Origin: Ostreococcus lucimarinus
Lineage: Eukaryota
DNA: 64,000 nt
NCBI GenBank assembly: GCA_000092065.1
Contig: CP000594.1
Strand: one strand, 5' to 3'
Shown here: in pieces, positions 791-44,142 of the stretch
Numbering within the stretch: position 1 is the stretch's first letter
Layout: each line of letters opens with the position of its first letter
Position numbers and translations under genes: made by a program
Notes under the pieces: generated by a model
Seen by the model: the letters and a program-made list of their open reading frames with translations, nothing else
What the model was told of the DNA's origin: nothing
The model's database searches: none

Positions 791-925
791 CTTTTCATCG
801 CAATTTGCATAGCACTTTTTAGCGTTTCATAAAAACTTTCCACGCGTTCGCGACGAAGTCCATCCGCGTCTCGTCGCGCGGCGCCGCACACCGCGACGCG
901 ACATCCATCGCGAGATCGCGTCACC

Positions 926-3787
926 ATGTCCACCGGATGGCTCCGAGGCGTCGTCAAAGCCGTCCCCAGCGGTGATCAAGTCATCATCGCCGCACCGTGC
1001 GCGCCAGGGGTGCGTTCGCGCGCCGTACCGACCGATTTCGTCGCGCGATGTCGACGCGACGGTTGCCCGATCGCGCGAAACTGACCACTCTCGCGACGAT
1101 TCTCGCGCTCGCAGGCCCCGCCCGGCGTCGAAAAAACGCTCACGCTCGCCGGTATCGTCGCGCCGCGTCTCGGTCGCCGCGACGGGTCGAGCGCGGACGA
1201 GGCGTTCGCGCGCGAGTCGAGGGCGTCGCTGCGGCGCGCGCTCGCGGGACGACGCGTGTCGTTTCGCGTCGAGTACGCGGTGGAGTCGATAAATCGCGAG
1301 TTCGGCGTCGTGTTCACGGAGAGCGGGGAAAACGTGAGCGTGATGCAAGTGTCTAAGGGGCTGGCCAAGGTGAAGGCGCCCGGGGGGAACGATCGAGCGG
1401 TGGCGAACGCGGAGGAGTTGGAACGACGCGAACTCGAGGCGCGAGAAGCCGAGGCGGGGATGTGGAGTAAGGATCCCGCGGTGCTCGCGGCGGCGAGTCA
1501 GCGAACGGTCGTGCAGGCGATGAAAGCGGAGGACGTGCTGGGTGCGTTGCGGATGAAACCGACGCCCGCGGTGGTGGATTACGTGCTGAACGGTGGGACG
1601 GTGAAGCTTGTGCTGACGGGGGACGGCGCGACGCGCGATCAGAATATCACGTTGTCTATCGGTGGGATTTCAGTGCCGTCCGTCGGGCGCAAGGGGGCGA
1701 AGAACGAAGATGGGACAGATCAAGGTCCAGAGCCGTTCGCGCTCGCGGCGAAGCATTTCACGGAGATGGCGCTCCTGCATCGAGACGTGCGGGTGATTTT
1801 GGAAGGTCTCGATCGTCGTAATAATTTCATCGGTTCAATCTTGCCCGCGGACGTGAACGATACGTCGTTCGTGAACGTCGGCGAAGAGTTGTGTCGGCTA
1901 GGTCTCGCGCAAGTGCACGAGGCGAGTGCGGCGGCGTTGATCGGTGGCGCGGCGACGCTTCGCGCGGCGGAGAAGATGGCCAAGGATCAGCAGTTGCGAC
2001 TTTGGCATGGATACGTCCCGCCAATATCTTCCTTGAACGCGATGACGACGAAAGTCTTCGATGCCAGAGTAGTAGAAGTCATCAGCGGTGATTGCATTTC
2101 CGTGGTGCCGACGTCAGGGCCGGATACGTCTGAGAGACGAATCAATCTGTCGTCGATTCGGGCGCCTAGAATTTCCAACTCACGAGATGACAAGTCCAAT
2201 CACGAACCTTGGGCGATAGAGGCAAAAGAGTTTTTGATCTCGCGTCTGATCGGGCGCACCGTATCGATTAATATGGATTACGCACGCAAGATTGGAGAAG
2301 GTGCGAACGAACGAACGTTGCACTTCGCCACGGTGAAGCTGCCAAACAACAAGACGGGCGGTGACCCGCTCAACGTTTCAGAGATGCTTCTCATGCGCGG
2401 TTTCGCGTCGTGCATTCGTCACCGTTCTGAGGAAGAACGTGCGGCAGACTACGATGAGCTCATCGCGGCGGAAAAGAAGGGCGTGGAGAGCAAAAAGGGA
2501 ATGCACAACAAGAATCGCGAGGCGCCTGTACACAGGACGAATGATTTTAGCATCAACGCGCATAAGGCGAAGACGTTTTTGCCGTTTTTGCAACGCGCGG
2601 GTAAGTGCGTCGCTATGGTAGACTACGTCGCCGCTGGACACAAAATTCGAGTTTCAATTCCCAAAGAAGGCGCGGTGATCGCCTTTTGCTTGGCGGGCGT
2701 TCGCTGTCCCCAGCGCGACGAGCCGTACGCCGCCGAGGCGTTGGCGTACACGCGTTCTCGAATTCTTCAGCGAGAGGTGGAAATCGTGGTAGACTCCGTG
2801 GATAGAACTGGAATTTTCCTTGGCACCTTATTTGCGGACAACGGGCGATTAAATCTCGGTGAAGAACTCCTTCGAGCCGGATTAGGAAGCTTGCACCCGG
2901 CGTTCCCGGTGGATCGCGTTCACTACGGTCGCGCGCTCGCGGACATTGAAGCCGCGGCACGGGAAGTCAAGGCTGGTTTATGGAAAGACTGGACCCCTCC
3001 GATCGTCGAAGTAGACGGGCCTGAGGATAGTTCGACCGGCGAACTCGTGCGAGTCGGCGTCACCGAGTGCGTCGCCGGGGGCCGATTCTTCGTGCAGAAG
3101 TTAGATGGGAGTAAGATTCAAGAGGTCACGGACAAACTCGCCGAGCTTTACGACGGCGTGGACACGAGCAAGCCGCACGATGGCGTGTTCGAACCAAAGC
3201 CTGGCGATGCCGTCGCCGCCAAGTTCACCGGAGATGACAAGTGGGCGAGAGCCATCGTCACCGCGAAGCGCGTCGGTGATAAGCCCGTCAGCGTCTTCTA
3301 CTGCGACTTTGGCAACGTCGAGGACATCGGTTTCAATCGTCTTCGACCTTTGAAGGATCCAACGGTCACCACAGTTGCTATCCCACCCATGGCCAACTTC
3401 TGCGCGCTTTCCTTCCTCAAGATTCCTCGCATCGATTCCGATTACGGCTACGCCGCCGCTTCGCACGTCGGCAAACTCATCTCTGGCCAGGCTTTCCACG
3501 CCCGAATCGACGCCCGCGATCGTTTCCCCACCACAAAACCATGGGAAATCGACGCACAGCCCGCGTTCTCGCTCACATTATTCCCCGACGCCAACGCTCG
3601 CGCCGCTGAATCCGTCGCCCTCGACCTCCTTCGCGCCGGCTTTGCGCGCGTCCACCGCCGCGCCGCCGCCCGTCGTCTCGATCGCGACGTCTTCGACGCC
3701 ATGGTCGACGCCCAGGAGTCCGCGCGTCGCGCGAGGGTCGGTCAGTGGGAGTACGGCGACGTCGATTCCGACGACGACGCGTCTTAG
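926..3787 (+). CDS. SND1: Tudor-SN / staphylococcal-nuclease-domain protein (SND1 family). Two exons, 926..1009 and 1115..3787
   Basis: Long ORF with repeated SNase-like (OB-fold) modules. A Tudor domain (KFTGDDKWARAIVTAKRVGDKPVSVFYCDFGNVEDIGFNRLRP) is inserted in the last SN domain. ATG at 926 encodes MSTGWLRGVVKAVPSGDQVIIAAP, matching the SND1 N-terminus (RGIIKMVLSGCAIIVRG...). The same frame hits TGA at 1082 and resumes at 1115 with APPGVEKTLTLAGIVAPRLGRR (cf. SND1 [21 protein letters not shown]). The ORF track's 1256 start is a GTG inside exon 2. Confidence 0.8.
1010..1114 (+). other. spliceosomal intron 1 of the Tudor-SN gene (105 nt, GTGCGT...CAG), phase 0
   Basis: Donor gtgcgt at 1010 lies right after the in-frame GGG codon. 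Acceptor cag is at 1112-1114. The length is a multiple of 3 and removes the in-frame TGA at 1082. Flanking exon translations align to conserved SND1 N-terminal sequence. Confidence 0.6.
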
Positions 3788-3938
3788 CCTTGTAATCGCG
3801 TTCGCGTCTCCCGTCGCGTTTGAACGCGCCGCGCAGGCCGCGCCAAAACCCTGTTCTGGATAAGAAAAGCGAACAACGACGCGCGCGCGCCGCACACCGC
3901 GTCGCGCGACGCCGCCCGTCGGCGCGCACACGACGACG

Positions 3939-5399
3939 ATGCACTCGCACGCGATGCGCGCGCGCGCGCCGCGCCCGCGCGCGAGCTCGCGCGCGTCGAC
4001 GCTCGAAAGCGCGCGCCGAGGCCGATGCGACGGGACGGGACGACGCGCGCTCGGACGCGTCGCGCGAAGCGCGAAGCGCGGCGACGGCGTCGCGACGCGC
4101 GCGCAGGGCGACGTCGACCTGCTGAATCACCTGGGAAAGAAGCGCGTGGTGATCACGGGGATGGGGGCGGTGACGGCGCACGGGGACGACGTGGATGAGA
4201 TGTACGAAAAGCTGTGCCGAGGGGAGAGCGCGATCGCGACGATCGATAAATGGGACACCGGAGAGATCGGAACGAAGTTCGCGGGGGAGATAAAAGCGTT
4301 CGATTGTGGGGATTATATGAATAAAAAGATGGCGCGCAGGGTGGATCCGTACATTGCGTACATGATCGTCGCGGCGAAGCGAGCGCTGGAGTCGGCAAAG
4401 GTGAACTGGAACGACGAGTCGGGGGAACATTACGTCGATAAAGCGTTGAGTGGATGTCTGATTGGTAGTGCGATGGGGGGGATGCAAACATTCGCGACGG
4501 CCACGGAGAATCTCGTGACGCAGGGACACAGAAAGATGAACCCGTTTTGCATTCCGTTTGCGATTACGAATATGGGAAGCGCGCTGACGGCGATGGATAT
4601 TGGATTCATGGGGCCGAATTATTCGATCGCGTCCGCGTGTGCGACGGGCAACTTTTGCATCTTGAATAGCATCATGCACATTCAAAACGGAGAGGCGAAC
4701 TTGATGCTCGCCGGGGCGAGCGACGCGGCTGTCATTCCCATCGGTATGGCGGGTTTCTCCGCGGCGAAGGCGTTGAGCACGCGCAACGATGACCCCGCGG
4801 CGGCTTCGAGACCGTGGGACGCGAACCGAGACGGATTCGTTATGGGTGAAGGTGCGGGCGTTCTCGTACTCGAATCTTTGGAAAGCGCATTGGCGCGCGG
4901 TGCGCCCATCGTAGCTGAAGTTTTGGCCGGGTTTGCGACGTGTGACGCTCACCACATGACTGAGCCTCGACCGGATGGCGTGGGCGTCAACTTTGCCATC
5001 GACAAGGCGCTCGAGATGACTGGCGTGAAGGCGGAAGATGTCAACTACATCAACGCTCACGCCACGTCCACGCCGGCCGGCGATATGGCGGAACTCCGTG
5101 TGTTGCAAAAGAAGTTCAAGGCGTCGGGGGCGAAGATTAATAGCACCAAGAGCTTGATCGGGCACTTGCTCGGCGCAGCTTCCGCCGTCGAAGCCGTCGT
5201 ATGCATCAAAGCCATCACTAGCGGCGAAGTTCACCCCAACAAGAACCTCGAAACCCCAGATGAAGGCGTTGACACCTCGATGTTGGTTGGCACAACGAGA
5301 GAAAAGCTCGACGTGAAGGTTGCTTTGTCCAATTCTTTTGGCTTTGGCGGGCATAACTCGGCGGTCCTGTTCGCTCCGTACAAGCCTAAACGCTCGTAA
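3939..5399 (+). CDS. 3-oxoacyl-[acyl-carrier-protein] synthase (KAS I/II, FabB/FabF family) with an Arg/Ala-rich N-terminal organellar-targeting-like extension
   Basis: Condensing-enzyme fold. Active-site Cys is in IASACATG. The two catalytic His are in HATSTPAGD and GHLLGAAS. The domain begins KKRVVITGMGAVTAHGDDVDEMYEKL. Starts at a verified ATG (3939). Confidence 0.85.
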   Translation: MHSHAMRARAPRPRASSRASTLESARRGRCDGTGRRALGRVARSAKRGDGVATRAQGDVDLLNHLGKKRVVITGMGAVTAHGDDVDEMYEKLCRGESAIATIDKWDTGEIGTKFAGEIKAFDCGDYMNKKMARRVDPYIAYMIVAAKRALESAKVNWNDESGEHYVDKALSGCLIGSAMGGMQTFATATENLVTQGHRKMNPFCIPFAITNMGSALTAMDIGFMGPNYSIASACATGNFCILNSIMHIQNGEANLMLAGASDAAVIPIGMAGFSAAKALSTRNDDPAAASRPWDANRDGFVMGEGAGVLVLESLESALARGAPIVAEVLAGFATCDAHHMTEPRPDGVGVNFAIDKALEMTGVKAEDVNYINAHATSTPAGDMAELRVLQKKFKASGAKINSTKSLIGHLLGAASAVEAVVCIKAITSGEVHPNKNLETPDEGVDTSMLVGTTREKLDVKVALSNSFGFGGHNSAVLFAPYKPKRS

Positions 5400-5496
5400 A
5401 CGACGCTTGATAATGTTATAAGAACTAGTCACCTGAATCACCGAACGTTCCTTCGTGCGTGCGCTTATATTTGATTGCCTAACGTATTGCAAATTG

Positions 5497-8400
5497 CTAA
5501 AAAATCAAATCAAGACCAAATACGGCGCTGATGACAAATAATACACCGAAGGCGAGCGCGACGGCGCTCGATCCACGAGCGATATAGCTCACAAACTTGG
5601 GATTATTCTTCTCCAACGCTGCCGTACCCGCACCAATGCAGTACGTGTACGTCCCCATGGCGATAATGGTTCCGATGAAGAACGTCGCCAAAAAAGAAAT
5701 CGCCTCGACGCGAGGGAGCGCCAGGGCAGGTAAAAGCAGAAACAATGAATCCGGTTGTAATCCATGGATGGTGCCAGTAATATACGTCCATGAGATGAAG
5801 CTGCTATCGCGCTTCGCGGGCACATCGCTCCCATGCGAGTGCGAATGCGAGTGTGAGTGTGAGTGTGAATGTGAGTGCGAGTGACCGCCCATGCTTTCCC
5901 AAAAGCCAATAGCGCCAATAATAATGAGCGTCAAACCGACGATTCCTTGTCCAAACTGACCGATAACTTCCAAGTTGAGCGGTAATTTATCCCTCAAAGC
6001 GATGAAAATACATCCAAATAAAATTTGACCCGTGTTATGCCCGAGCCCCCAAAGCGCGCCCATCAACGCGTTTTGCGCTCTGCTCGGTCCCACTGTCAGT
6101 GGCGTGAGTGCCGCTAAGTGGTCTGGCCCCGTGAGCGTGTGCAAGCAACCGGCTAATAGACCAGCCCATGCAGACTTAAACGCCGTGATTACGCTCATCC
6201 AGTGTGCGACGTGCAAATGTTTGACCCAAATGGCAATCGCTTCGCTGCACACCGAGTACGCTGCGCCCAAGCAACAAAACACGGTGAACGTCGTGAGGGC
6301 CACGGTAGTACTCTTGGACAACGGCTGTCGCCCGAACGTGACAAGCAAACGCACTGAGTTCATCGCCACCATGAGGGTCGCGCCTTCGTGCAGCAATACC
6401 GCCAACCATAGCGGAAACGCGCCGAAGAGAGCGGGAATAGCTGACCCCAAGATTGATACCACGGCGAGTGCGATGTTTTGTCGTAAAGTGCGTCGCGTGC
6501 GCTCGGCGATGGAAAACAGCTCTGGTAATTGAGAGATGCCTCCTTCGTCTTTAGTGAGCAACAGTACATCCGCCGCACTCGCGGCGGCATCGCTCGGCGT
6601 CGACGCGATGGCGACGCCGACATCCGCGGCGGCGAGCGCTGGGGCATCGTTGATACCATCGCCAACCATGGCCACGCGAGGATATTGCTTGGATTTCACG
6701 CGCTCTCGCATTGATTCAACCAGTGCAAGCTTTTGAGACGGAGTCAATCCGGCGTGTACGTCTTCCGGTTTCAACTTGATCTCCTCAGCCATGGCTATGG
6801 CGCTCGTCTTGTTGTCGCCCGTGAGCATGGCCAACTCCATACCCGTCGAGTCGCTCGCCACCTCCCACCATCTCCGTCGGCACTTGCCAGTACGCAGGGA
6901 CTCGATGGCATCGGGCGCCTGCAAATTAAGCGTATCACTAAACCTAAACAGCGCCGGGCTTTCGCCCTCAATCGCGAGCACAGAGAGCACTTCGCCCTCT
7001 TGCGCGATGACCTCGGCGGAGCATTCCGCAGCGCCAGTGTTACACAGCTCGAGCGCAAACTCGGAGCTACCGAATCGCGCACGCTTGCCGTCGATCGTGC
7101 CTTCCACACCACTCCCCGCGATGACTTTGTAATCCGTCACGGGACCGACGTCTGGCAAAATGATCCCCCGCGCCGCTTGCGTCACCGCGGCGGCAATCGG
7201 GTGGGACGAACCGCGTTCGAGGCTCAGCGCGTACGCCAGAGCCTTGACTGACGCGCTCGGAGCAGTGTCGTGTTGCGCACCGTCTTCAAATTGTGTGATA
7301 TTCGTGCAGCTCATTTGCCCCGTCGTGATGGTTCCCGTCTTATCGAGCGCCACCGCGCCGACTTCGGCCAAAGCGTCGAGAGTCAAGCCGCCTCGAATGA
7401 GCACACCTCGCCGAGCCATGGCCCCGATGGCCGCCACGTACACGAGCGGCGACATCAACAATGCACACGGCGCTGCGGAGGATAAAAACGCAAAGCTGCG
7501 ATACATGGCACCGCCGCGACCCAAAAATGGAATCCCGAGCACCATCGGCGCCGCGGCCATGGTAATAAAGGTGATGGCCAATATCGCCTTACTGTAGCGG
7601 TCTCCTATGCTATCGATCAATCGTGAGACTTTCGGACGACGCCGCTGCGCAGCCTCGGTGAGTCGCGCGATTCGCGCCGGTGTGCTCTCCTCGCTCGATC
7701 TCAAGCTCTTCACCACGAGCACGCCGTCGGTGTTCATCGCGCCGGCGGGAATCTCATCGCCGTATCTCTTCATCACCGGCAAAGCCTCACCGGTGATGTG
7801 TTGAATGCTCACTAACGCGCTGCCGTGGACAACCATACCATCCAACGGCACTTGCTGTCCAGCCTTGACGAAAATCATCGTCCCAACGTCGACGTCCGCC
7901 GCGGGCATCTCTCGGAGCGTCGTCAAATCCGGCGTCCCATCGGCGAGCAACTGCACGACGTCCGCCGTCGTGGGCACCGTGCCCCACAACGCCTTCAAAT
8001 CCCCCCGAGCGTGCAGCGTCAATCGATCCTCCACGAAGTGCGCCAGGGCGAAGAGCACCAAGAGCAGCGCGCCCTCCATCGCGCACCCCAAGAGCACGGT
8101 GCCGAACACGGCCAACGTCGTGAGCACGTGAATGTTCACGTTCCCCACCGCGAGCTCGTACGTCACGTCCACAAACTCGGGCGTCCCCGCCAACACGTAA
8201 ACCAGAATCGTGCACACCCGACTGACGTTCGCCGCCATCGTCGTCTCCACCAATCCGCCGCCGCCGACGTGCGTCGCCACGTGCGCCGCCCCCGCGACGA
8301 GAAACAGCGCCCACGACACCACCGCCACCGCCGCGTTCCCGCGCAGGAAATCCGCCACCGCGTGCAAACCAGTGGCGTTAAACATCGCATCCAGCGCCCT

Positions 8401-8889
8401 CTCCGTGCGTCCGCGCGGTGCAAACTCCCCGGAGCTCGTCGCCGCCATCATCCCCGCCTGCGACACGAACTCGTCCTCGTCCGCGCTCATCGCGCCGTCC
8501 ATCGCCCGCGCGCCCCGCGCCTTACCGCACGAGTGCCCACAACACGAGTGAAATTCCCCACCGTGCGCCCGCGCGCGCTCGAAACCGCGTCGACCGCCTT
8601 CCCCGCGCGTCCGCGTCCCGCGTCCCGCGTCCACCCTCGCGAACCTCCCCCCCCGCGCCCCCACGACGCGCGCGCGCTCGCGATTCGACGCCGCGCGCGC
8701 GCTCGACGCGTCCATCCGCGCGCTCGCGCGCGTCCGGTCGCATCTGTCTCGCGCGCGCGTCCCCGTCGCCGCCCCCGTCGCCGTCGCCGCGCGCGCGACA
8801 ACGATGCGCGTCGCCGTCGTCGCGCGTCCGCGCGCGCGCGGCGCGCCCGCGAGCGCGCGCGGCGAGGGCGCGATCGCGTGCGCGCGCAT
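5497..8889 (-). CDS. P1B-type heavy-metal-transporting ATPase (HMA1-like, P1B-4 subgroup) with a ~350-aa C-terminal multi-TM extension resembling NicO/NiCoT nickel-cobalt permeases
   Basis: P-type ATPase motifs are TGEA (actuator), DKTGTIT (phosphorylation), MLTGDN and GDGINDAPAL (hinge). TM6 reads AAPCALLMSPLVYVAAI, which matches the HMA1/CoaT-type SPC/APC signature. N-terminus is a transit-peptide-like Ala/Arg/Thr-rich leader plus an HSCCGHSCG cluster. The C-terminal extension has ~7 predicted TM helices, HTLTGPDH (HX5DH), GLGHNTGQ (cf. NiCoT GHSSVV), and a (HS)9 loop followed by HGLQPDS. ATG verified at 8889. Confidence 0.85.
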   Translation of the reverse strand: MRAHAIAPSPRALAGAPRARGRATTATRIVVARAATATGAATGTRARDRCDRTRASARMDASSARAASNRERARVVGARGGRFARVDAGRGTRTRGEGGRRGFERARAHGGEFHSCCGHSCGKARGARAMDGAMSADEDEFVSQAGMMAATSSGEFAPRGRTERALDAMFNATGLHAVADFLRGNAAVAVVSWALFLVAGAAHVATHVGGGGLVETTMAANVSRVCTILVYVLAGTPEFVDVTYELAVGNVNIHVLTTLAVFGTVLLGCAMEGALLLVLFALAHFVEDRLTLHARGDLKALWGTVPTTADVVQLLADGTPDLTTLREMPAADVDVGTMIFVKAGQQVPLDGMVVHGSALVSIQHITGEALPVMKRYGDEIPAGAMNTDGVLVVKSLRSSEESTPARIARLTEAAQRRRPKVSRLIDSIGDRYSKAILAITFITMAAAPMVLGIPFLGRGGAMYRSFAFLSSAAPCALLMSPLVYVAAIGAMARRGVLIRGGLTLDALAEVGAVALDKTGTITTGQMSCTNITQFEDGAQHDTAPSASVKALAYALSLERGSSHPIAAAVTQAARGIILPDVGPVTDYKVIAGSGVEGTIDGKRARFGSSEFALELCNTGAAECSAEVIAQEGEVLSVLAIEGESPALFRFSDTLNLQAPDAIESLRTGKCRRRWWEVASDSTGMELAMLTGDNKTSAIAMAEEIKLKPEDVHAGLTPSQKLALVESMRERVKSKQYPRVAMVGDGINDAPALAAADVGVAIASTPSDAAASAADVLLLTKDEGGISQLPELFSIAERTRRTLRQNIALAVVSILGSAIPALFGAFPLWLAVLLHEGATLMVAMNSVRLLVTFGRQPLSKSTTVALTTFTVFCCLGAAYSVCSEAIAIWVKHLHVAHWMSVITAFKSAWAGLLAGCLHTLTGPDHLAALTPLTVGPSRAQNALMGALWGLGHNTGQILFGCIFIALRDKLPLNLEVIGQFGQGIVGLTLIIIGAIGFWESMGGHSHSHSHSHSHSHSHSHGSDVPAKRDSSFISWTYITGTIHGLQPDSLFLLLPALALPRVEAISFLATFFIGTIIAMGTYTYCIGAGTAALEKNNPKFVSYIARGSSAVALAFGVLFVISAVFGLDLIF
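5833..5885. repeat. hexanucleotide microsatellite (GAGTGY)n that encodes the (His-Ser)9 loop on the minus strand
   Basis: gcgagtgcgaatgcgagtgtgagtgtgagtgtgaatgtgagtgcgagtga read directly. It corresponds to HSHSHSHSHSHSHSHSHSH in the minus-strand ATPase ORF. Confidence 0.85.
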
Positions 8890-9311
8890 CGTTCGACGCG
8901 CGCGTCCCGGACGCGGCGCGCGCGGGCGTGTGACGCGCGTCGCGACGCGATCGGACGCGCGCTAGGGAAGCCGCGCGTTCGCGGCCGACGATCGCGCCCG
9001 TAATCGCCATTTCGCGACGCCCGACATGGATTTATTTCGGGACGCGCGCGTGGAGATGATAGGTTTAAAACGTCCTCGAACGCGCGTCGGAGGCGCACTT
9101 TTCGCGCGCGCGGGCGATGGATGCGCGCGCGTCGACGACGCGGGGGGCGCGCGCGGCAGAGCGCGGCGGGTCGCGACGGCGACGGCGACGGCGCGGACGG
9201 TCGCGGCGAAGCCCGGACGAAGGCGCGTCGACGCGCGCGCGGCGCGCGGACGCGAGCGACGCGACGCGCGGTCGACGAGAGGCGTGAGTTCGAGTTGGGT
9301 GTTGACGGTGG

Positions 9312-10694
9312 ATGTTGACGACGGCGATGGCGTCGTTTTCGAGCGAGGCGCTTCGCGCGTGGCGCGCGGGGGACGAGGAAGACGCGCGCGAACGCGCGGC
9401 GTTGATCGCGGCGAGCTCGGGGGGCGACGGCGGCGCGGATGGGGCGCGGGGGGGGGGCGACGACGGCGGCGCGAGGGCGAGCGCGCGAGGACGACGCGCG
9501 CTCGCGGCGGCGGCGTGCGTCGCGGCGCTGGTGGGCTTGGGGGCGTGCGCGCGCGCGCACGGTGCGGAGATGAGCGGGCGCGAGCGTGGGGTGCGCGCGG
9601 CGGCGCTCGGTGGGGAGGCGCGTTCGGGCGGGACGCGGCGGCGCGGCGCGCCGAGACGCGCCGCGCCGAGACGCGCCGCGGCCGCCGCGGCCGCCGTCGG
9701 GCAGAGCGAAGCCGAGAGCGGTCTAGTGGTGTTTAATGAAGCGCCGGAGTATACGTGCGCGAAACGGAATAAAGCTTTGAGAGAGGCTGCTTACGCCGCG
9801 AGGATGGGGTCGCCGTGGACGCCGGGGTGTCACTCAAAGCTAGGCGAGGAGGGGTGCACGAAGATTTCAGACGCCGGCGCGCGACTGGCGGCGTTGAGCG
9901 ATCACGTGTACGTCATCTGCATGAAGTGCGATAAAATAGTGCTCCCATTGCAGTGGGCGGGGAAGGTGACGACGGTGCACGGCGCCGACATCGATCCGTG
10001 CTACGGGCGCGCGGCCGCGGATCACTGGCACAAGGCGTCGATGTCGCACGTGCACGCGCTCCTCGACGCCGTCAAGTACCAGTACAAGACGGTGACCATC
10101 GTCGAAGAAGATGCGATAACGGTTTCACCCGATCGCGTGGACGCCAACGCGGGGTTCGACATCGACGGCTTAGAGCACGCGATCAAGAATGACTCGAGTT
10201 GGAACACCGTTCGCGTGGGTTACAGACCATTCTTTTTCGAGCAACAGTCTGCAAACGTCCCAGTCGGTTCGACACCGCATTACGCCTGCCCGCTGGCGTG
10301 TAAGTGCCACGAAACGACGGCGAAAAACGCGTGCATCGTGCGCGAGAATGGATGTGACATGCGAAGCAGCGACTTTTACATGATTCGCATGTCGCAGTCG
10401 CGCGCCATCAGAAAAACCGTCGGCGCGGGGAGCACGATCGACATGGAAGCTTTACGCAACGTGCATCATCAAATGTACGTGTTGCCGCAGCTCAGCTACC
10501 AAGCGAACCTCGATCGCACGCGCGAGCAGCAAGTGAATATGGCTCGACGATTCAGAGACTTGTGCTTTGTGCCGAAAACTCCGTCCGACGAAGTCGTGCA
10601 AGACGCGGCGACGGCGGAGCGCGAGTACGAAGAGCGAGTGAGCACCATCGAGTCCGCGGACTCGACGCGATATATCACCAAACCACAACGATAA
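9312..10694 (+). CDS. putative type-II membrane glycosyltransferase, weakly GT25-like (LPS/collagen galactosyltransferase family)
   Basis: ATG at 9312. N-terminus is a Gly/Ala/Arg-rich cytosolic tail followed by a single hydrophobic anchor (LAAAACVAALVGLGA). The lumenal domain has HVYVICMKCD...HKASMSHVHAL...IVEEDAI, loosely matching GT25 (IYVINL...GEIGCxLSH...LEDDAI). Family assignment is tentative. Confidence 0.35.
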   Translation: MLTTAMASFSSEALRAWRAGDEEDARERAALIAASSGGDGGADGARGGGDDGGARASARGRRALAAAACVAALVGLGACARAHGAEMSGRERGVRAAALGGEARSGGTRRRGAPRRAAPRRAAAAAAAVGQSEAESGLVVFNEAPEYTCAKRNKALREAAYAARMGSPWTPGCHSKLGEEGCTKISDAGARLAALSDHVYVICMKCDKIVLPLQWAGKVTTVHGADIDPCYGRAAADHWHKASMSHVHALLDAVKYQYKTVTIVEEDAITVSPDRVDANAGFDIDGLEHAIKNDSSWNTVRVGYRPFFFEQQSANVPVGSTPHYACPLACKCHETTAKNACIVRENGCDMRSSDFYMIRMSQSRAIRKTVGAGSTIDMEALRNVHHQMYVLPQLSYQANLDRTREQQVNMARRFRDLCFVPKTPSDEVVQDAATAEREYEERVSTIESADSTRYITKPQR

Positions 10695-12044: not shown

Positions 12045-12937
12045 TTAAAGCGCCGTCGGGCGCCCACCGTCGACGCCGTCGCTCGACGCCTCGGCGGAGG
12101 CGCTCAAATACCCTTGCGCCCACGCCTCGTCGCGACTCCATCCGTCCTTTCCAGATGAAATCGAATTCACCGCCGTGGGCTTGGGTTCAGACGTGTACGA
12201 CGGTCTAGCGCTCTCGACGCGCGAACCGACGGCGTCGAGAAGATCGTTCGCCCACGGCGCGCCCGGCATCACTCCCGACAGATTGGGATCGGCGAAGTGG
12301 GTCTCATCTTTCGGAGCCACCACGTACTCTCCCAATCGACGCTTGATCGCGTTCAGAGCCATCTCCGCTCGAAGCGTGCGCTTTTCAAGTCTTCTGTTCT
12401 CCGCGTTCAAGCTGAGCACTTCGCGCTCGAGCGAAAAGTCGTCCACGAGCATCTTCGCGCGCTCTAAGTGCATTTGCTCCACCTTCGCCCGCAACCGCTT
12501 GCGGTCGGCGCGCGCGGGCCAACCGAGAACCAAATTCCCAAAAAAAGCGCCGAAAAACCCACCCTTCATCACCCGTCGCGTCTCCGGCTTGAGATTCATC
12601 CACTCCTTTCTAATCGGCTCCGTCACCGGCTTCAACAAATTATTAATCTGCCTCGCCGTCGGCCCAAAGTGATCGACCGCCACGTTCATCGACGGCTGTA
12701 TCAACTTCGCCTTCTCATTCATCTCCTTCGTCACCACGTTCTGCGTCGACTGCGCCCACGTCGCCGTCGTCGCCGTCGCTCGTCTCGTCAGCTCGCTCGC
12801 CTTGTCGAACCACTTCCCCCACCCCCCGCCCTTGCCGTCGCCACCGCTCGCGCTCGTCGAGGCCCCACCGCTCGCGCTCTGCGCGCCGCTCGCGCCGTTC
12901 GGTTCCTTGATCGACCGCACCGCGCGTCCGCGCGCGC

Positions 12938-12974
<37 letters not shown>

Positions 12975-13094
12975 GCGTCGTCCCGTCCCTCGTCGTCGCG
13001 CGCCGTCGTCGCGCGTCGTCGCGCGTCCGCGAAACGCGCCGGGTGCGCCGCGATCGAGTCCGCGCGCGCCGAGTCCGCGCGGCGGCGGCAGCAT
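12045..13094 (-). CDS. hypothetical coiled-coil protein with a (Thr)12 tract and a GWGKWFDK.../FFGAFFGNLVLGW hydrophobic segment
   Basis: Minus-strand ORF. The first ATG is at 13094 (the track's 13151 start is TTG). No family recognised. Confidence 0.4.
12940..12975. repeat. trinucleotide microsatellite (GTC)12 encoding the poly-Thr tract on the minus strand
   Basis: ccgtcgtcgtcgtcgtcgtcgtcgtcgtcgtcgtcgtg read directly. Confidence 0.85.
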
Positions 13095-13430
13095 GGCGCC
13101 GCCGTCGTCGCGCGTCGGCGTGCGCGGACGCGCGACGACGCGTCGCGTCAACGGCTCGGTCGGACGAGGACCGCTACACAGCGCAATTGGAGGTACTTTA
13201 TGACCTCAGCGTTCATATTAGGACGGTGCGTGTACCTATTTACCGGACGAGGACTGCGTCGTATCGGTAAACAGTGCGAGCGACTGACGCTTCAGTCGCG
13301 GTCGCGCGACGGACCCGTCGTCGCGCCGCGGCGCGCGCGACGGACCGCGAGCGAGGCGTCGTCCGTCGCTCGACGTCCGCGCGGCGTTCGCGCGCGCGAT
13401 CGAGGCGCGCGCGCGTCGCGACGGACGACG

Positions 13431-16400
13431 ATGGTGTTCGAGCGGTTGTTGGCGGACCAACTGAACGCGAGGCTCGGGCGCGTGCTCGAGGGCGTCGATC
13501 GCGACGACGTGCGCGTGGGCGTGCTGAACGGAGACGTGCGGATACGGCGGGTGCGGGTGCGGGCGTCGGCGCTGACGAAGATATTGGACGAGCCGAGCGC
13601 GCGGGTGCGGTGCGGATTCGTGGACGAGCTGCGCGTGCGCGTGCCGTGGAGGAACTTGGGGAAGGAGGCGGTGCGAGTGACGTTTCACGGGGTGTACGTC
13701 GTGGGGGAGATCGATGTGAACGGAGACGACGAGGCGCGGGAGAGCGAGGAGGAGCGGAGGGAGAGACAGCGGGTGAAGGCGTTGAGGACGGCGCGCAGGG
13801 CGGCGGACGCGGCGGAGCGGGCGTGGTTGAAGTGGAATCCGGCGGTGAACGCGGAGGCTTTGGAGGCGGAGGACGGCAGGGAGAGCGCGCAGGATGGGGT
13901 GAGGAAGAGGAGCGCGATCGCTGGGCTCATCGACGTCGCCCTGGCGAACGTTCTGATTGAAATTTCAAACGTGCACGTCAGAATCGAGGGCGAGTACGGA
14001 GCGGGCGTTCCGTGGGGAATGGGACTCGTGCTCGAACGCGTGTCGCTGACGACCGTTGGAGAAGATTTCGAAAATGACTTCAAAGTCGGCGGTTTCGCCG
14101 ACAGTTTACGAAAGATGATTGCGTTAGAGCGCGTCGGCGTGTACGCCGATTTCAATTCGCCGTCAGTCGCGTCAGAGACGCCGGACGGTTGGCGAGGCAT
14201 CCGCGAAGACCAATTCGTGCGGCAAATGTCCGCGGTCTTCAATACCGAGGTTGGCGAGCGCATGAAAGAAGGCACCAGCGGCGATGTCGTGATACCGCAA
14301 TCGTACGTATTCGGACCGTTACGAGGAACGGCGACGTACGCGAGAAGAGGTCACGCCGAGGACACCAACACGCCGCTGCATCAATTACGGATGGATATAA
14401 ATTCTATTCAAATCAGCATCAAGTCAACGCAGCTTAAGGTGTTTTACAACATGTACTCCAATTTACGCACCAGTCGCGTGCGGTACACGTATGCGCATAT
14501 ACGCCCAAGGGTCGGCGTCAAAGGAAATGCGCGTTTATGGTGGCGTTTCGCGGGCGCCGGCGTTCAGATGCACGTCGACGAAATACGTAAACGGCGTGGA
14601 TTGGACTTTAAATCTAGTGTTAGCGCTATGGTGCGCATAACTGAGGCTCGCCAGCGTTATATTCCTTTATACGTCAAGCATTTGCGCTCTGCACCGCCAC
14701 CTCCAGAGTGTCTAATCGCCGAACGCGCCGAGCGACGCAATAAGCTTTGGCCACCTAAACTGAAGATTGGGATGTCGACAGAAATTGATGAAATCGAAGA
14801 AGGTATTCCCCTGCAGAGTATTATTACTTTCCGAACGCTGGCGCACGTAGAATACCGGGAGTCTGGCGGGGTGAAAGCGGCGGTAGCGAGAGAACGAGCG
14901 GCTCGCTTTGGCAAACGTCGGGTCGTCAGAGCAGTCGTCGGTCTCGCGGGCGGTGGTGCGAAGAACACGGCAAAGGTATTGAAAGGGCTGTCGGCGCCGA
15001 TTCGTGGTCTTGCTCGAGCAGTTAACAAACGCGACTCGACAGCATTATTAGTCGAGAGGCAAAAGCGTTTGCGAAAGTCGCAACCGGAAGAAGATGATGA
15101 TTCAAACTGGCGAGAAAGTCTAGAGAATACGGTGCAATTGAGCCAGCGAATGGTGGCTCTAGAAGAAGAAGCCGTGCACTCTTCGGTTGAGCTATCCGGA
15201 GTGGTGAATGTTGAAAAAGTATTAGTTTGCATGGTTGATGACGAGGTTGACAATCCAATCGGTGAGCAGGAGATTTTTAGAATAGGTGTCCATGAAGTCA
15301 GTTTGGGAACGCTGCGAGGTTCTGGACGACGAGAACAACGCGTTTCTATCCGCCGATTGGCGATCGTAAGCCCGGAAGGGACACTACTCGATTCCAGTAA
15401 GACCACTGATAATGAAGAGAGAGCGACCTCTCTCGATCGTTCACAAGTTGCGTTATGGGACAAGGCGTCCGAGTGTAACGCGGTGCAATTGCAAATAGTC
15501 AAAGGCGATGTCGAGACAGAAGAAGATATCTTCATAAAGTTTCAGATGAGGCAGTCGATCGTGCACTTATTGCGAGAGCCTTTAGATAGAGTGGCGCGAG
15601 TGGCTGTGCGACACAAAGTGACGACGGCATATCTCGAATCTTTCATTTACGACGATGAAGCGAAACAGCGCAATCACACACACTCCATCGAAAAGCAGGC
15701 AGATGAGTTCAAAATCAGACCAAGAGTGCGATTAGACGCGCGAGTTCACGGTCCCGTGATTATTTTGGATGGCGACGGCGTAAACTTACGCATAGACCTT
15801 GGTACAACGGTAATTGAGTCTATGACGCCAGTTTCAGCTGGCATCGAGAGCTCACTAGCAAAAGAACACAATGTTTTCTCATTTCAATGCACAGGATTCC
15901 AAGTCGGATTTATCGACGATGAATGGGATACGAATTCGAACCGACCTGTGGAAGATGAACAGATAATACTTCCGCTGTTGAGTGCACCGTCGTCAAACAC
16001 CGTCGTGATTCAAAATTTGAATGCCGCATCCGATGCGCCGAATCTCAAGGTGCACTCAAAGTTCAGCGCCATTGATATTTCGGTTTCTCCTGTGCGAGTG
16101 TTTAAGATCCGTTCTTTGGTCAAGGCATTGAAGCCAACAACGTCCATAAGTGAGGAACACGTCGCCGCGGTTGTCACCGAAAACGAGGTCCGAGTGCTGC
16201 TGCTGCAATTGGATGAAAGCGGCGAAGTGTGTTGGATACCGGCGACGATATCGTTGCAAAACAATAGTTCTATGGATATTAGAACGATTAATGGGCTCAA
16301 AAGTCGAACAATTCACATCAACCTCATGGAAAGCAACGGGGCGAGCAAATTGCGAAGTGACATTTGCGCGAAACTCTCCTTGCACAAGGACGTACTCACT

Positions 16401-19400
16401 ATCGGTGAAACTGTGCATTCTTTGGACGAGTTAATGATTTCAGCTATGTCGGATGATAGTCTCAGCGTGATGTTTGATATTGACGATGATGATGCGAGAT
16501 CTCGCGACACGGTCCTGTTCGATGCATGGTACGCACGGATTAACGGCGTCGCTCGCGAAAATATCACTAGGCTGACAAATGCTGCAAAGAACGGCAAGCT
16601 GTCGAAGACTCAAGTGATTTTAAGTGTCGGCGCCGAAAAGCTGTCTGTTCATGTTTTTGCACCTCTCAAAGCACATCCATCCGAAGATGATTCCGCTGTG
16701 ATAAATGACGAATCAGATTCTGAACGAGCGCTCGCAAGCCTTTGTTTCGACGAGCTCAACTACGACTCGTCGTTGGCTCGTACCGTGAAAGTCCATCATA
16801 TAAAAGCAAACTCACTCGTTTTGTACGACAGATATGCAAGTGAAGGTCTTGGACGCGAGTGCATCGCCGGAATTGGAGGACAGGGCTCCGGTCAACCCCT
16901 ACTTACAGTCACGGTCGCCGTTCGCCATCAGAGCGATCCCCAATATTGCGGATTGGACAAGCTGATCGAAGTCGACATTCACAAAGAGTTAGTGATGAAT
17001 ATTCGTCGGCCCACGCTCCTTGCATTGATCTCGTTGAGATTCAGACTGCGTCCACCCGGTTTCAAGATTATTAAGATCATGCCTGATGTATCGTCGCGCA
17101 TCATGATTTCTGGCAAGCTCGTAAAACGGATCAAACGCGAGATACGCGTGAACGTTGCGGCAGTGACTGCGAATGGCTTTTATGATCACGACAAAGAGAT
17201 GGATGTTCCTGTGCTAGTGTTGCGTGCCGAAGATTCGTATTGGAGCACCATTATCAGTCCTCCAACACGTGAAACAAGCGTAAGCGTTGGCACCATAAAA
17301 CTTGCGACGGGACAGATGCAAGCTCGGGGCGCTTGGAATCTACAACCTTCACCCGAGTCGAGCTCAAACATCATACTTTTACGTAATGACGTGTACGACA
17401 GAGGAGAAGAATTAGACGGGGCCGATGTGTCGTGGGAGATCGAGCTCGGAAATTTGGACATAGTTATGACTCCTGAGATGAAGGAAATTGGATCGTGGTT
17501 CGCATTCTTTCGTCAAATAAGACCTGATCATATTGAAAAGTACGTCCACCCATGTGCACGACCTCGAGCTGGATTTCAAGTGCTCAAATCCCGTCTCTTG
17601 ATCAAGATGGACGATCAAAGGATCACCTTGCCCGTCGCCCTCAGCGAGGGCGAGTCAAATCACGACGTCGTCATCAACTCAGGATGTGTAGAAATCACCA
17701 GATCATTTTCTTCGAAAGCAATCAATGAAGCGCATTCAATATTTTGGCAAACAACGGCATTGAGCGTGTCAGAGTTTGAAGTAAGTGTCATCTCATTTGC
17801 GGAGAAGCGGAGAGAAAGCGTTTCTAAAATTACGCAGAAGCCGTTTGGTGTGAAATTGTCTTTGCGGAAGAGAATTGACAGTGGCCCCGCAATCGTGAAT
17901 GAACTCGATGATAAGAACAAAATCAGAGTGCAGCCTATTTTCCTCGACTTATCCGGTAGCGAATTTCGATGTGATCCACGATTCCATCAAGAACATTCAG
18001 TTGAGTAAAGTTCGGCCGAACGTCAAAGTGGAAAATCCTATCAGATGGGGTAGCGTCGGACCGCTCCCTGTTTCAGACGTGCTCGCGCCGGCATCGTTGA
18101 AGTCGATGGAATTGAGCGTTATTCTGAGCAGCGCAAAACTCCGCGTCTTCCGGCTACCGATGCAAAGTCGTCCCCTCTCAACGATAAAGGTAGTTGGCGT
18201 CGACGTGTTTGTCGTAAAAAACTTGAATCGCAAGTCTGGAATCAATCTCGACGCTACCGTGGATATGATTGGCGTCGACGATAATTCTCGACAATCCCAG
18301 AACCTTAAAGTCAAGCACGTTCTCTATGCGGGTTCTCCGAAATTACCATTGCTTCATTTGACGCTCGGTGTGAATGATGACAGCACGCGCCTGCGAATTT
18401 CGCTACAGCATGTAGAAGTATTGCTGCGTGTGGGAATCATTTTGGATACCATACGGACTTTCGCACCTCGAAAATTTGGAGGGGTCTTTTTAGCCAGTAC
18501 GATTCTTCCTCAAGACATTAAGTGCGTGCACGGCAGTGACTTCCATCTCGATAAGGATGTCACTCTGACGAAAAGTACGAGACTGCTGGCCGACGATCCC
18601 AAAATTGTTGCTGGCAAATATGTGCTGCGCGGAGGTGGACATACCATAAAATTCGCCGATGGCAAAGGAGCGATCATTCGTCATTATTCCCATGGCTCTC
18701 GACGCAAGACGATGCCACGCATTATTATCGGTCATGGCGCAACGCTGAAGATTGAAAACGTCACCTTCAATTGTACACGCTCAACATTGTCAAGGTTTAT
18801 CAAAATGATGCCCGGCGGTAGTTACTCCCTCGGTAAGAGTGTTTCCTTTGACGAGACCGAAGAAGAGTTGATACCGGTTCACGATGGTCTTGTTGAAAGC
18901 ACACCAGTTATTGATGCCGCAACAAAGCGTGCAGAAGAAGGACCAGGGCGAAGAATGAAGGAAATTAAAAAGAAACCGCTGTTGGTCGAGGTGGATGTGT
19001 CATGCGTACATATAGTCATCGGTGAAGAATTGAGAGCTGATCAGATCAACTTGATGTTTGGAGTCGATGTGGCAATAATTCGGGACGAAGAATTGAACAC
19101 GACGGGAACTTATCAGCTACTTCGTCTTCGTACGAAGGACACTATGAAACCACCGCTTCTGGAACCAGCAAGCGTGACAATGCACGTTGTATCGCGTGAT
19201 GGCGGCACCACAACTTGCACGGGGTGTGTGACACCTATCAAGATGCAGTTGAGTCCCAACAGGATTTGTATCTTGAAGAATTTCACGGAACGTATTGAGC
19301 GATCATTTGCAATTGCGCCCATCTTGCAAACCGGCGTGTATTCGTGTGTCTGGGCAGGACATGCAACCACTTTAACAAAAAAAGTAACTGAGGCGGGTGT

Positions 19401-43800: not shown

Positions 43801-44142
43801 CGCGGAAGTTTGCATTCTTCACGATCTTTCAATCGACACCCGAAACAGTCTGAGCACGCACCGACAGTCACGCCGTTGTAGGTCCCGGCGTGATAACAGA
43901 ACTCTTCGCTTGATGCGAGTGCGTTCGTGCTCGCGTACGCACTCGAAACGGTGCAGTCGGCGTGAGAGAAACACACGTCGCCCGGGTCCGCGCGCGCGGT
44001 GTGCGCGACGGCGAGAGCGAAAACGAACGGCACGAGGAGGTTCTGAAACATTTTTGGTGTGGGTTTAGCTCGCGAAAAAGTTTCAGCGAGGCTTGACGTG
44101 CGCCGCAAAGTGAGGTTCGGAGATCCGGAGATCCGCCGGTTG

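Follow-up and report, generated by a model that had tools for sequence, protein, structure and literature searches.

Does one gene of a picoalga encode two metal-transport modules that are normally separate, and if so, what is the second module and what does the join mean? This question is raised by a minus-strand open reading frame (ORF) in a 64,000-nucleotide stretch of Ostreococcus lucimarinus DNA (contig CP000594.1; hereafter the window), which encodes 1130 residues and a stop codon with no interruption (Table 1). The earlier note had read it as an HMA1-type ATPase fused to a NicO/NiCoT-like permease. The protein consists, in order, of a transit-peptide-like N-terminus, a P1B-4 ATPase, an adapter helix and a domain of six transmembrane helices (6-TM domain); both modules are intact, and the full-length AlphaFold2 (AF2) model has a pLDDT of 85.9. 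The ORF is a genuine, evolutionarily kept gene fusion of an Ostreococcus-clade prasinophyte picoalga, with a polypeptide of roughly 15 TM helices. A single polypeptide does combine, as first proposed, an HMA1-like (P1B-4, APC-type) pump with a second multi-pass domain, whose family is regarded as metal-transport-related; and the motifs APC, DKTGT, GDGINDAP, HX5DH and GHNTGQ were all found where they had been placed. No published description of the fusion was found in the literature.

Table 1. Features of the fusion gene, with positions in the window and residues of the encoded protein.
Feature	Residues	Position	Strand	Basis or remark
Fused HMA1-type ATPase, adapter TM and NiCo/CGF-like domain	1-1130	5497..8889	-	Complete ORF, profiles, homologues
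Arg/Ala-rich N-terminal region	1-129	8503..8889	-	Transit-peptide-like; poorly conserved
Short Cys/His-rich motif HGGEFHSCCGHSCGK	109-123	8521..8565	-	Candidate N-terminal metal-binding motif
P1B-4 ATPase core, 8 TM (MA, MB, M1-M6) with A, P and N domains	180-850	6340..8352	-	Profiles, AF2
APC motif in M4	473-475	7465..7473	-	Motif scan; variant of P1B-4 SPC
DKTGT phosphorylation motif	516-520	7330..7344	-	Motif scan
GDGINDAP hinge motif	743-750	6640..6663	-	Motif scan
HEGAT motif in M6	834-838	6376..6390	-	Motif scan; P1B-4 signature
Adapter/linker TM helix between pump and permease-like domain	859-889	6223..6315	-	Hydropathy, AF2
NiCo/CGF/ZN-like 6-TM domain (UreH-like TM, PF13386-related)	895-1130	5500..6207	-	Homology, AF2
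HX5DH motif HTLTGPDH in TM1	917-924	6118..6141	-	H917, D923, H924 invariant
GHNTGQ motif in TM2	950-955	6025..6042	-	G950, H951, G954, Q955 invariant
(HS)8H tract in central TM3-TM4 loop	1003-1019	5833..5883	-	Imperfect CAY-TCN hexanucleotide repeat
HGLQPD motif in TM4	1042-1047	5749..5766	-	G1043, L1044, P1046, D1047 invariant; H1042 nearly

A full P1B ATPase was recovered by the profile search across residues ~250-850. The TIGR01525 score was 460.6 bits (cutoff 346.25) and the TIGR01512 score was 379.5 bits, above its cutoff; the Pfam models PF00122 (145 bits) and PF00702 (61.6 bits) were also matched. The catalytic motifs of P1B ATPases, i.e., TGE (residue 366), DKTGT and GDGxNDxP, are all present together with xPC in M4. 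The P1B-4/HMA1 subclass is indicated by APC (not CPx) in M4 and by HEGAT in M6; the APC variant has been reported for the HMA1 of Ostreococcus and Micromonas (PMC3922081). The nearest named relative of the pump is a Cymbomonas protein annotated as HMA1 (47% identity), in a retrieved set from which land-plant HMA1 is absent. The PDB relatives by sequence are ZntA (4umv, 199 bits) and sCoaT (7qbz, 190 bits), two scores that do not discriminate between them. Comparison with the HMA1/P1B-4 pumps, such as AtHMA1 of the chloroplast inner envelope and the bacterial sCoaT, showed that the full catalytic core, the 8 TM helices, xPC in M4 and HEGxT in M6 are common to all. The ferredoxin-like HMA domain is likewise missing from them, and PF00403 had no match at E<=1 in the fusion protein. 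The difference lies in an extra ~280 residues (the adapter TM and the 6-TM NiCo/CGF-like domain), which are missing from the two retrieved trebouxiophyte HMA1s, the retrieved bacterial P1B-4 pumps and land-plant HMA1.

This extension runs ~280 residues past the last ATPase helix (residues 851-1130) and not ~350 as first estimated. The seven or so further TM helices counted there correspond, by hydropathy and AF2, to one adapter helix plus the 6-TM domain. Searches with this domain retrieved plant CGF1, CGF2 and ZN at E values of 1e-52 to 1e-54 (44-47% identity, ~80% of the query covered), and the homologues numbered 2230 representatives at E<=0.001. The AF2 model of the domain (pLDDT 81, pTM 0.71) is a confidently predicted 6-helix bundle after a long helix; the six TM helices form a 3+3 layout with which hydropathy agrees, and TM1 and TM4 are kinked at their motifs. 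The HGLQPD motif is the pseudo-symmetric counterpart of HX5DH. Motif invariance was read from alignments of 19 and 94 sequences, and the candidate metal-liganding residues (H917, D923, H924, H951, H1042 and D1047) are kept in fused and free-standing members; the second domain does carry the conserved His/Asp motifs and the His-rich loop that had been noticed at first. Judged by its sequence, it is clearly a member of the plant chloroplast NiCo / CGF1-CGF2 / zebra-necrosis 'UreH-like TM domain' family. With plant NiCo (At2g16800/At4g35080), which are CGF1/CGF2, and with rice and tobacco ZN it shares ~45% identity along the entire 6-TM domain, the 3+3 layout, and the invariant HX5DH, G-H-x-x-G-Q and HG-x-QPD motifs. 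The plant proteins are free-standing behind their own transit peptide, whereas the domain of the fusion is tethered to the pump via the adapter helix. In these plant proteins the acidic central loop carries a Cys pair and KKKK and usually lacks His; in the fusion it contains the His-Ser repeat. No solved structural relative of the 6-TM domain was found.

The earlier note had proposed that the extension is a bona fide NicO/NiCoT (HoxN/NixA/RcnA-type) Ni/Co permease, which is now very unlikely. The layout is indeed RcnA-like: 6 TM helices, His residues in TM1 and TM2, and a long central His-rich loop (TM3-TM4, cytoplasmic) are common to both, and the end-to-end hhalign register matches. RcnA itself has precomputed matches to PF03824 and PF13386, one bacterial relative of the domain matches the RcnA model weakly (E 0.0013), and published work uses the name 'NiCo' for the plant members (PMC4780311). 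However, the NicO profile PF03824 was matched by 0 of 94 family members at E<=0.01, and the window protein did not match it either. The NiCoT signature HX4DH (H.{4}DH) had no match; the motif is H.{5}DH, so that the spacing in TM1 differs from that of RcnA/NicO. The extension of the window protein had no Pfam match at E<=1, PF13386 included. PF13386 (DsbD_2) was matched by 58 of the 94 homologues, mostly near the 24.9-bit cutoff, and HupE_UreJ (PF04955) weakly by 7 of 94 (best E 0.0028). In hhalign against RcnA, the probability fell from 95.4% with loops to 0.5% (E 0.11) with the loops deleted, in a comparison whose RcnA side had no sequence diversity. Since the His-rich loops account for the score, the 95% match to Escherichia coli RcnA appears to be an artefact, and no significant profile similarity to RcnA/NicO is left outside these loops. 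With low-complexity sequence removed, none of the profiles of characterised metal transporters was matched significantly by the domain. Moreover, no nickel-enzyme genes were seen among the Pfam-scanned neighbours of the prokaryotic relatives. The PF13386 name, 'cytochrome c biogenesis protein transmembrane region', also suggests a thiol-disulfide electron transporter of the DsbD/CcdA type. This reading is as good as refuted, because the conserved Cys pair is lacking: the domain has no Cys position that is invariant or close to it, His and Asp occupy the motif positions of TM1 and TM4, and the CcdA match ranked below generic helical-bundle matches.

A single ORF might also be an artefact of an assembly error, of a missed intron bearing a stop, or of read-through of two genes. 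A metagenome contig (L001, 99% identical) has the gene as two called genes, split at the repeat; however, the split is due to one inserted G in the repeat, and only the frame of the window reaches the conserved second half. A 339-kb contig carries a 99%-identical region with unchanged gene order. Both modules were present in 68 of the 240 proteins from the first two homologue searches, with ATPase identities of 40-99%, and about 11 of the top 150 representatives at 50% identity were long proteins with the domain match at the C-terminus. The two modules are also encoded by complete MMETSP transcripts (P0166; P0178/P0241 from Pyramimonas parkeae; P0291/P0292), and by the Cymbomonas proteins KAK3235878.1 and KAK3235877.1, where the NCBI annotation is HMA1. 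Because the fusion stands on numerous independent contigs and in complete transcripts of several genera, the artefact reading is refuted. The concern that an intron might carry a stop no longer applies, since the junction is unbroken here and related algae have complete transcripts with both modules. Chance is likewise excluded by the strong homologues of both halves and by the dozens of independent contigs and transcripts that show this architecture. The description of the fusion as unusual is true in part: land plants and the two retrieved trebouxiophyte HMA1s are without it, but it is kept across prasinophyte-grade green algae, which indicates a lineage-wide architecture and not a one-off.

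The adapter helix (hydropathy peak 1.79) is helical in both AF2 models, and the linker has low pLDDT. Each of the 22 fused homologues with a delimitable linker has a hydrophobic adapter segment, whose sequence itself is not conserved. The chain of a P-type ATPase ends on the catalytic (cis) side. With one adapter helix after this end, the 6-TM domain would start on the opposite side, and its TM3-TM4 His-Ser loop would come back to cis. By canonical ATPase topology and helix counting, the loop is thus predicted on the side of the catalytic domains, from which metal enters the pump; the K+R bias (6 cis versus 3 trans) weakly agrees with this topology.

The His-Ser loop is disordered in the AF2 models. 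Its tract was first given as (HS)9; it is (HS)8H, with nine His and eight Ser. It is encoded by a hexanucleotide repeat as described, but not a perfect one, for the CAY-TCN units contain synonymous differences (TRF period 6, 8.3 copies, 86% matches). The suspected length polymorphism holds among clades, where the length varies widely, whereas inside 90%-identity clusters the length is almost fixed. The median His count of the loop is 11 in fused forms (at least 5 in 87%) and ~0 in the forms typical of land plants; Cymbomonas has 5 His in its fused copy and 1 in its free one. This strong enrichment suggests that the second module has been adapted to its partner. Other P1B ATPases also carry metal-binding extensions, such as the N-terminal HMA domains of Cu/Zn pumps and the His/Cys-rich C-termini of plant HMA2/HMA4. 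A His-rich element attached to the metal-entry side of the pump would be common to these proteins and the fusion; in the other pumps the extension is a soluble tail or domain, whereas here the element is a loop within an extra polytopic transporter-like domain.

The first 129 residues include 31 Ala, 29 Arg and 8 acidic residues, and this composition suggests that the fusion protein may be targeted to the plastid. Conservation starts at about residue 130 (MD..S.DEDEFVSQAGM), and the start codon is uncertain. The short Cys/His-rich motif recalls the His-rich N-terminus of AtHMA1. It is retained in L001 with an in-frame 3-nt difference, and analogous motifs (SCCG, CCNHSH, CHGHSH, HGDHGHSH and poly-His) are found at the equivalent position in other fused lineages.

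As a whole explanation, the conserved fusion is regarded as a two-module divalent-metal homeostasis unit in the plastid envelope, with a probability of about 0.65. Divalent-metal homeostasis by two modules is the most likely function, and the mechanism that we infer for it is as follows. The 6-TM domain would act as a secondary metal permease in the plastid envelope, a label suggested by its motifs and family resemblance. The ATPase would pump metal out of the compartment served by this domain. The cis-side His-rich loop and the N-terminal Cys/His motif would buffer or sense metal, and either pass it to the pump or gate the permease. Both HMA1 (PMC3922081) and NiCo (At2g16800; PMC4780311) are inner-envelope proteins. 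A pump and a permease that handle one metal in one membrane would work against each other in a futile cycle, unless regulation or different selectivities prevent this.

The modules might instead be merely co-translated without mechanistic coupling, for stoichiometric co-expression or co-targeting, or as a polyprotein that is cleaved once imported. Both modules are complete and look like the free-standing proteins, free-standing copies exist in land plants and at least in Cymbomonas, and the linker is poorly conserved in sequence with low pLDDT. The prokaryotic relatives, too, almost never adjoin a P-type ATPase: the two families were linked in only 1 of 57 prokaryotic loci, and the other neighbours were housekeeping genes. 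However, the fusion has been kept even where the ATPases are only ~40% identical, always with the topology-fixing adapter TM, and the concentration of His-rich loops in fused forms also argues against simple co-translation, which is considered rather unlikely. The one exception among the prokaryotes is a Verrucomicrobiales MAG locus (L019, CALBIE010000593.1), in which one strand carries, head-to-tail, the genes of a P1B-4 pump, an AI-2E permease and a CGF-like protein. It shares with the fusion the two families, the pump subclass (SPC, HEGST), the pump-first order and a His-rich loop in the CGF-like protein; the genes are separate, however, with the third gene in between, and as a single case among 57 loci the linkage may be coincidental.

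There is also some chance, though a low one, that the C-terminal domain is a non-transporting, membrane-embedded accessory or regulatory part, with the His-Ser loop as the metal-binding domain of the pump. The P1B-4 pumps are without the classical HMA domain, and so is the fusion protein; the loop is predicted on the entry side of the pump, and its His-richness is specific to the fused versions. Transport has not been demonstrated for any member of the NiCo/CGF/ZN family (PMC4780311). Against this, the intramembrane HX5DH, GH and HGLQPD motifs are invariant in fused and free forms, an invariance that fits a conserved site within the membrane better than a simple anchor of the loop. The homeostasis unit, with a transporting second domain, is still preferred.

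The fusion matters because, as a Rosetta stone, it links HMA1 to NiCo/CGF. By this logic, the envelope HMA1 and NiCo/CGF of land plants are predicted to act together, a hint that these separate proteins cooperate. Defective chloroplasts have been reported for cgf1 cgf2 mutants (PMC7168881). A bolder and tentative idea is that HMA1 and NiCo/CGF might be an ancient obligate pair in green plastids, i.e., an ATP-driven extruder together with a secondary permease, both using one stromal element that senses or buffers metal. If this were true, the prasinophyte fusion would be a fossil record of an HMA1-NiCo/CGF complex, and its polytopic C-terminal domain would represent a novel type of module, embedded in the membrane, that regulates a P-type ATPase or delivers metal to it. 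The obligate pair would also account for the severe chloroplast defects in the cgf1 cgf2 and zn mutants, and the import and export phenotypes reported for HMA1, which contradict each other, would be explained by NiCo/CGF as the missing partner.

The minus-strand ORF 5497..8889 encodes a protein of 1130 aa without interruption, as the earlier note had claimed, and every motif named there was found in this product. In the Pfam and NCBIfam scans a full heavy-metal P-type ATPase spans aa ~250-850, with matches to PF00122, PF00702, TIGR01525 (460.6 bits; cutoff 346) and TIGR01512 (379.5 bits); the Pfam scan of the fusion protein gave no match to the metal-binding domain PF00403. The pump carries the P1B-4 signature: M4 has an SPC-type motif, in the form APC, and M6 has HEGxT. 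The APC variant is not new, since PMC3922081 describes it for HMA1-like proteins from Ostreococcus, Micromonas and Coccomyxa. The relatives of solved structure are near-equal to the pump by sequence, with 199 bits for ZntA (4umv) and 190 bits for the P1B-4 pump sCoaT (7qbz); the subclass call therefore depends on the motifs, by which the pump is assigned to P1B-4. A look-up of the fusion protein with seven alternative start codons returned no exact-sequence record.

Features of the fusion protein and its downstream neighbours
Feature	Residues (aa)	Window position	Strand	Remark
Cys/His motif HGGEFHSCCGHSCGK	109-123	8521-8565	-	just upstream of first conserved block
TGE	366			fusion protein
APC	473-475			fusion protein, M4
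DKTGT	516-520			fusion protein
GDGINDAP	743-750			fusion protein
HEGAT	834-838			fusion protein, M6
HTLTGPDH (HX5DH)	917-924			fusion protein, TM1 of 6-TM domain
GHNTGQ	950-955			fusion protein, TM2 of 6-TM domain
(HS)8H, 9 His + 8 Ser	1003-1019	5833-5883	-	central loop of 6-TM domain
KASII-type 3-oxoacyl-ACP synthase		3939-5399	+	ketoacyl-synt domains in syntenic L001 gene
639-aa antisense ORF		3573-5492	-	overlaps KASII gene

The extension behind the ATPase measures ~280 aa (aa 851-1130), which is shorter than the ~350 aa first estimated. The AF2 full-length model (aa 151-1130; pLDDT 85.9, pTM 0.75) contains MA, MB and M1-M6, the canonical set of eight P1B helices, together with the A, P and N domains. 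A long helix at aa 859-889 and six more helices follow, in agreement with the seven further TM helices proposed before. In this model TM1 and TM4 of the 6-TM domain are kinked at HX5DH and HGLQPD, respectively, and the loop at aa ~1001-1028 is disordered. A hydrophobic TM-length segment lies between HEGxT and HX5DH in 22/22 fused homologues with a delimitable linker; its Kyte-Doolittle maximum is 1.7-2.5, and its sequence differs between lineages. The C-terminal end of P-type ATPases is on the catalytic side. Together with the odd number of adapter helices, this would put the 6-TM domain's N-terminus on the opposite side and bring the His-rich TM3-TM4 loop back to the catalytic, metal-entry side. 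The K+R counts (6 vs 3) agree weakly with this topology.

The full-length homologue search revealed many long proteins spanning both halves. Of the 240 proteins collected by then, 68 had BLAST matches to both the ATPase and the extension, with ATPase identities from 99% to ~40%. Transcripts had been proposed as a check of the fusion, and complete MMETSP transcript ORFs of related algae do encode it, namely those of P0166 (1097 aa), P0178/P0241 (Pyramimonas parkeae) and P0291/P0292 (~1200 aa). Cymbomonas tetramitiformis has two fused proteins (KAK3235878.1 and KAK3235877.1), which NCBI names chloroplastic HMA1 and nothing more, and also a free-standing copy of the domain (KAK3248731.1). The land-plant NiCo/CGF matches are all free-standing (260-460 aa); neither the trebouxiophyte HMA1s that were retrieved (Botryococcus, Micractinium) nor any bacterial pump retrieved has the extension. 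The two modules might be merely co-expressed, or the product might be a polyprotein that is cleaved; the free-standing copies in land plants and Cymbomonas speak for this, and the adapter segment kept in the fused proteins speaks against it. This reading is rather unlikely.

The syntenic metagenome contig L001, of 99% identity, matches the gene order of the window (MRP-L27, fusion, KASII, Tudor-SN), and its fusion gene is divided into two calls of 899 aa and 107 aa. The split is caused by one extra G in the His-Ser repeat (L001 6630-6640, window ~5865), and the conserved second half is reached only in the frame of the window. The most probable source of the extra G is a mistake of assembly or sequencing within the repeat; a null allele is possible. 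The multi-contig evidence, the transcripts and the L001 frame exclude artefact explanations, so that an artificial fusion has a negligible probability. Among prasinophyte-grade green algae, the fused architecture is lineage-wide. An NJ tree built for the 6-TM domain, coarse and contaminated with fragments, did not discriminate between one origin of the fusion and several. Both modules and the APC motif are already known, and fused sequences are public under the label 'HMA1'. No description of the fusion was found in the searchable literature, including two surveys of P-type ATPases in the green lineage, both with Ostreococcus among their species (PMC3355532, PMC3922081); a prior mention in the main review of algal metal transport (Blaby-Haas & Merchant 2012, PMC3408858) is possible.

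Several observations concern the surroundings of the gene. The KASII gene is its convergent downstream neighbour, with the two stops ~100 nt apart; the antisense ORF was rejected as a gene and rated a GC-rich shadow ORF. Window 8001-10000, with the divergent stretch that separates the fusion gene from ORF 9312-10694 (+), has 73% GC and is crowded with short tandem repeats rich in CG. Within the fusion gene, this part differs most from L001, with many indels. ORFs 9312-10694 (+) and 11210-11929 (+) fall into one cluster of at least 90% identity, together with one O. lucimarinus 'predicted protein' of 660 aa (XP_001421281.1), which assigns the window to an alga of the Ostreococcus clade. An MRP-L27 gene is called between their counterparts on L001. 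XP_001421281.1 may be a mis-merged gene model, or a single gene may have both ORFs as exons. Further on, an 1846-aa ORF at 12468..18008 (+) extends into a long lower-GC block at 14001-26000 (also 42001-46000), with 47-51% GC against 52-73% in the rest of the window. Low-GC outlier regions have been described on Ostreococcus chromosomes, and the block resembles them.

In direct scans the extension alone matched no Pfam or NCBIfam model. Its clear homologues are the inner-envelope proteins NiCo/CGF1/CGF2 of Arabidopsis (At2g16800, At4g35080) and ZN of rice, and an exhaustive HMMER search gave 2230 representatives of the domain (50% identity, E<=0.001). In the family alignments, the invariant residues include H917, D923 and H924 in TM1, G950, H951, G954 and Q955 in TM2, and G1043, L1044, P1046 and D1047 in TM4, where H1042 is nearly so. 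As judged from sequence conservation, this putative pseudo-symmetric His/Asp set in the membrane helices is of a type usual for a transition-metal site, and the resemblance to metal permeases pointed out in the earlier note was judged sound. PF13386 matches 58/94 family members, with a best E of 1.6e-8 and the majority near the gathering score. Its Pfam name suggested a DsbD/CcdA-like redox role, which is ruled out since the alignments contain no conserved Cys in the 6-TM domain; any redox function of the extension is very improbable.

The narrower assignment to NicO/NiCoT could not be upheld. In Pfam, PF03824 matches 0/94 family members, and HupE_UreJ weakly matches 7/94; the motif search found no NiCoT HX4DH spacing in the extension. 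By hhalign, the A3 profile gave a probability of 25% against a single RcnA sequence, and a broad 328-sequence domain profile gave 95.4% against E. coli RcnA, in register from TM1 to TM6. The latter match was dropped, since the probability collapsed to 0.5% (E 0.11) once the His loops were removed on both sides, which indicates that the signal was low-complexity histidine. The RcnA side had no sequence diversity, so the low value does not count against a distant relationship. The control with a reversed sequence reached a score of 11.2 over 12 columns. An RcnA-seeded homologue search gave only E. coli/Shigella variants of at least 89% identity, and thus no diverse NicO profile. Genuine RcnA proteins have precomputed matches to PF03824 and PF13386 alike, which would fit a distant superfamily relationship without proving it. 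That the extension is a true NicO Ni/Co permease is distinctly improbable, and the His-rich loop can produce false homology to RcnA/NicO.

The tract in this loop had been described as a perfect (HS)9 repeat. It is perfect in the protein, although one Ser shorter; at the DNA level, CAY-TCN hexamers form an imperfect array (86% matches). Virtually all fused lineages have His-Ser or His-x repeats in the central loop, and the fused forms have a median of 11 loop His (at least 5 in 87%). In typical land-plant proteins the loop is acidic and has zero His; it contains a Cys pair and a KKKK motif. His-rich loops also occur in some free-standing algal and grass proteins; in Cymbomonas, the loop has 5 His in the fused copy vs 1 in the free copy. 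The suggested polymorphism of the repeat was only partly borne out. Between clades the count differs widely (7 to 24 His), and an internal duplication of ~25 aa was found in one sequence. However, the length is nearly fixed inside 90%-identity clusters: an extra unit was found in 1/12 members of one cluster, and no variation in three others. The synonymous heterogeneity of the DNA, together with interruptions in close relatives (HSHPHSH, HSNSHSHDGHSH), points to a His-rich peptide being selected for, and not to free microsatellite slippage. The extension might also be an accessory domain without transport, which gives the pump its metal-binding loop; the loop is His-rich mainly in fused forms, which speaks for this, and the intramembrane residues are invariant across the family, which speaks against it. 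This reading is considered rather unlikely.

The motif HGGEFHSCCGHSCGK is located in an Arg/Ala-rich, otherwise unconserved N-terminus. Other fused lineages have SCCG, CCNHSH, CHGHSH, HGDHGHSH or poly-His at the same relative position, so translation would start upstream of the first conserved block. These analogues suggest that the motif is a candidate metal-binding element. It is predicted to share one side with the His loop, as two candidate soft-metal-binding elements.

At least 57 prokaryotic relatives of the domain were confirmed in a pattern-limited genome scan. The main groups among the matches listed are Verrucomicrobiota, Planctomycetota, Myxococcota and Acidimicrobiia, and no cyanobacterial relative is among them. 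No CGF homologue has been reported in cyanobacteria either (PMC7168881), and the origin of HMA1 is thought to be in Chlamydiae, also of the PVC lineage (PMC3922081); both modules may thus be of non-cyanobacterial origin. A P-type ATPase within 6 kb was found at only one of the 57 loci listed, a Verrucomicrobiales MAG locus (CALBIE010000593.1). At positions 2211-6639 it encodes a P1B-4 pump (SPC, HEGST), an AI-2E-family permease and a CGF-like protein of 218 aa with its own His-rich loop, head-to-tail on one strand. These are three tandem genes, whereas the alga has a single ORF; the locus is possibly a prokaryotic operon counterpart of the fusion, a weak and perhaps coincidental likeness. The conserved neighbours at the other loci listed are housekeeping genes with no metal-related gene among them, including Maf, sugar transferase, squalene/phytoene synthase and FGE-sulfatase in Verrucomicrobiales and MurG-like genes in Myxococcota. 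A general guilt-by-association with metal pumps was therefore rejected.

The fusion protein joins two intact modules. Its putative metal ligands and its adapter helix are conserved, and His-rich loops are enriched in the fused forms. It probably acts as a unit of the plastid envelope, in which the 6-TM domain would be a secondary metal permease and the ATPase an ATP-driven extruder, with one compartment as their common target. Metal would be buffered or sensed by the His loop on the cis side and by the N-terminal Cys/His motif, which would either deliver it to the pump or gate the secondary permease. Moving the same metal both ways would be futile, so the pump and the permease probably have different selectivities or are under reciprocal regulation.

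HMA1 and NiCo/CGF/ZN are both chloroplast-envelope proteins with an unsettled function in plants. The metal and even the transport direction of HMA1 are disputed (PMC3922081 vs PMC5948301). NiCo/CGF/ZN proteins are necessary for chloroplast integrity, and their sole link so far is PIC1, by yeast two-hybrid (PMC4780311, PMC7168881, PMC7214486). The Arabidopsis NiCo is an inner-envelope protein reported to bind PIC1 in that assay (PMC4780311), and chloroplasts of the cgf1 cgf2 double mutant are defective (PMC7168881). Annotation pipelines call the fusions plain 'HMA1' or cut them into two genes. A conserved natural fusion with fixed relative topology gives the specific, testable hypothesis that HMA1 and NiCo/CGF/ZN cooperate, and also predicts on which side, relative to the pump, the His-rich loop lies. 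A tractable picoalga thus offers a single-gene system for comparing pump-dead, permease-site and loop-deletion mutants. Through this Rosetta-stone link, the functions of HMA1 and NiCo/CGF/ZN become jointly testable.
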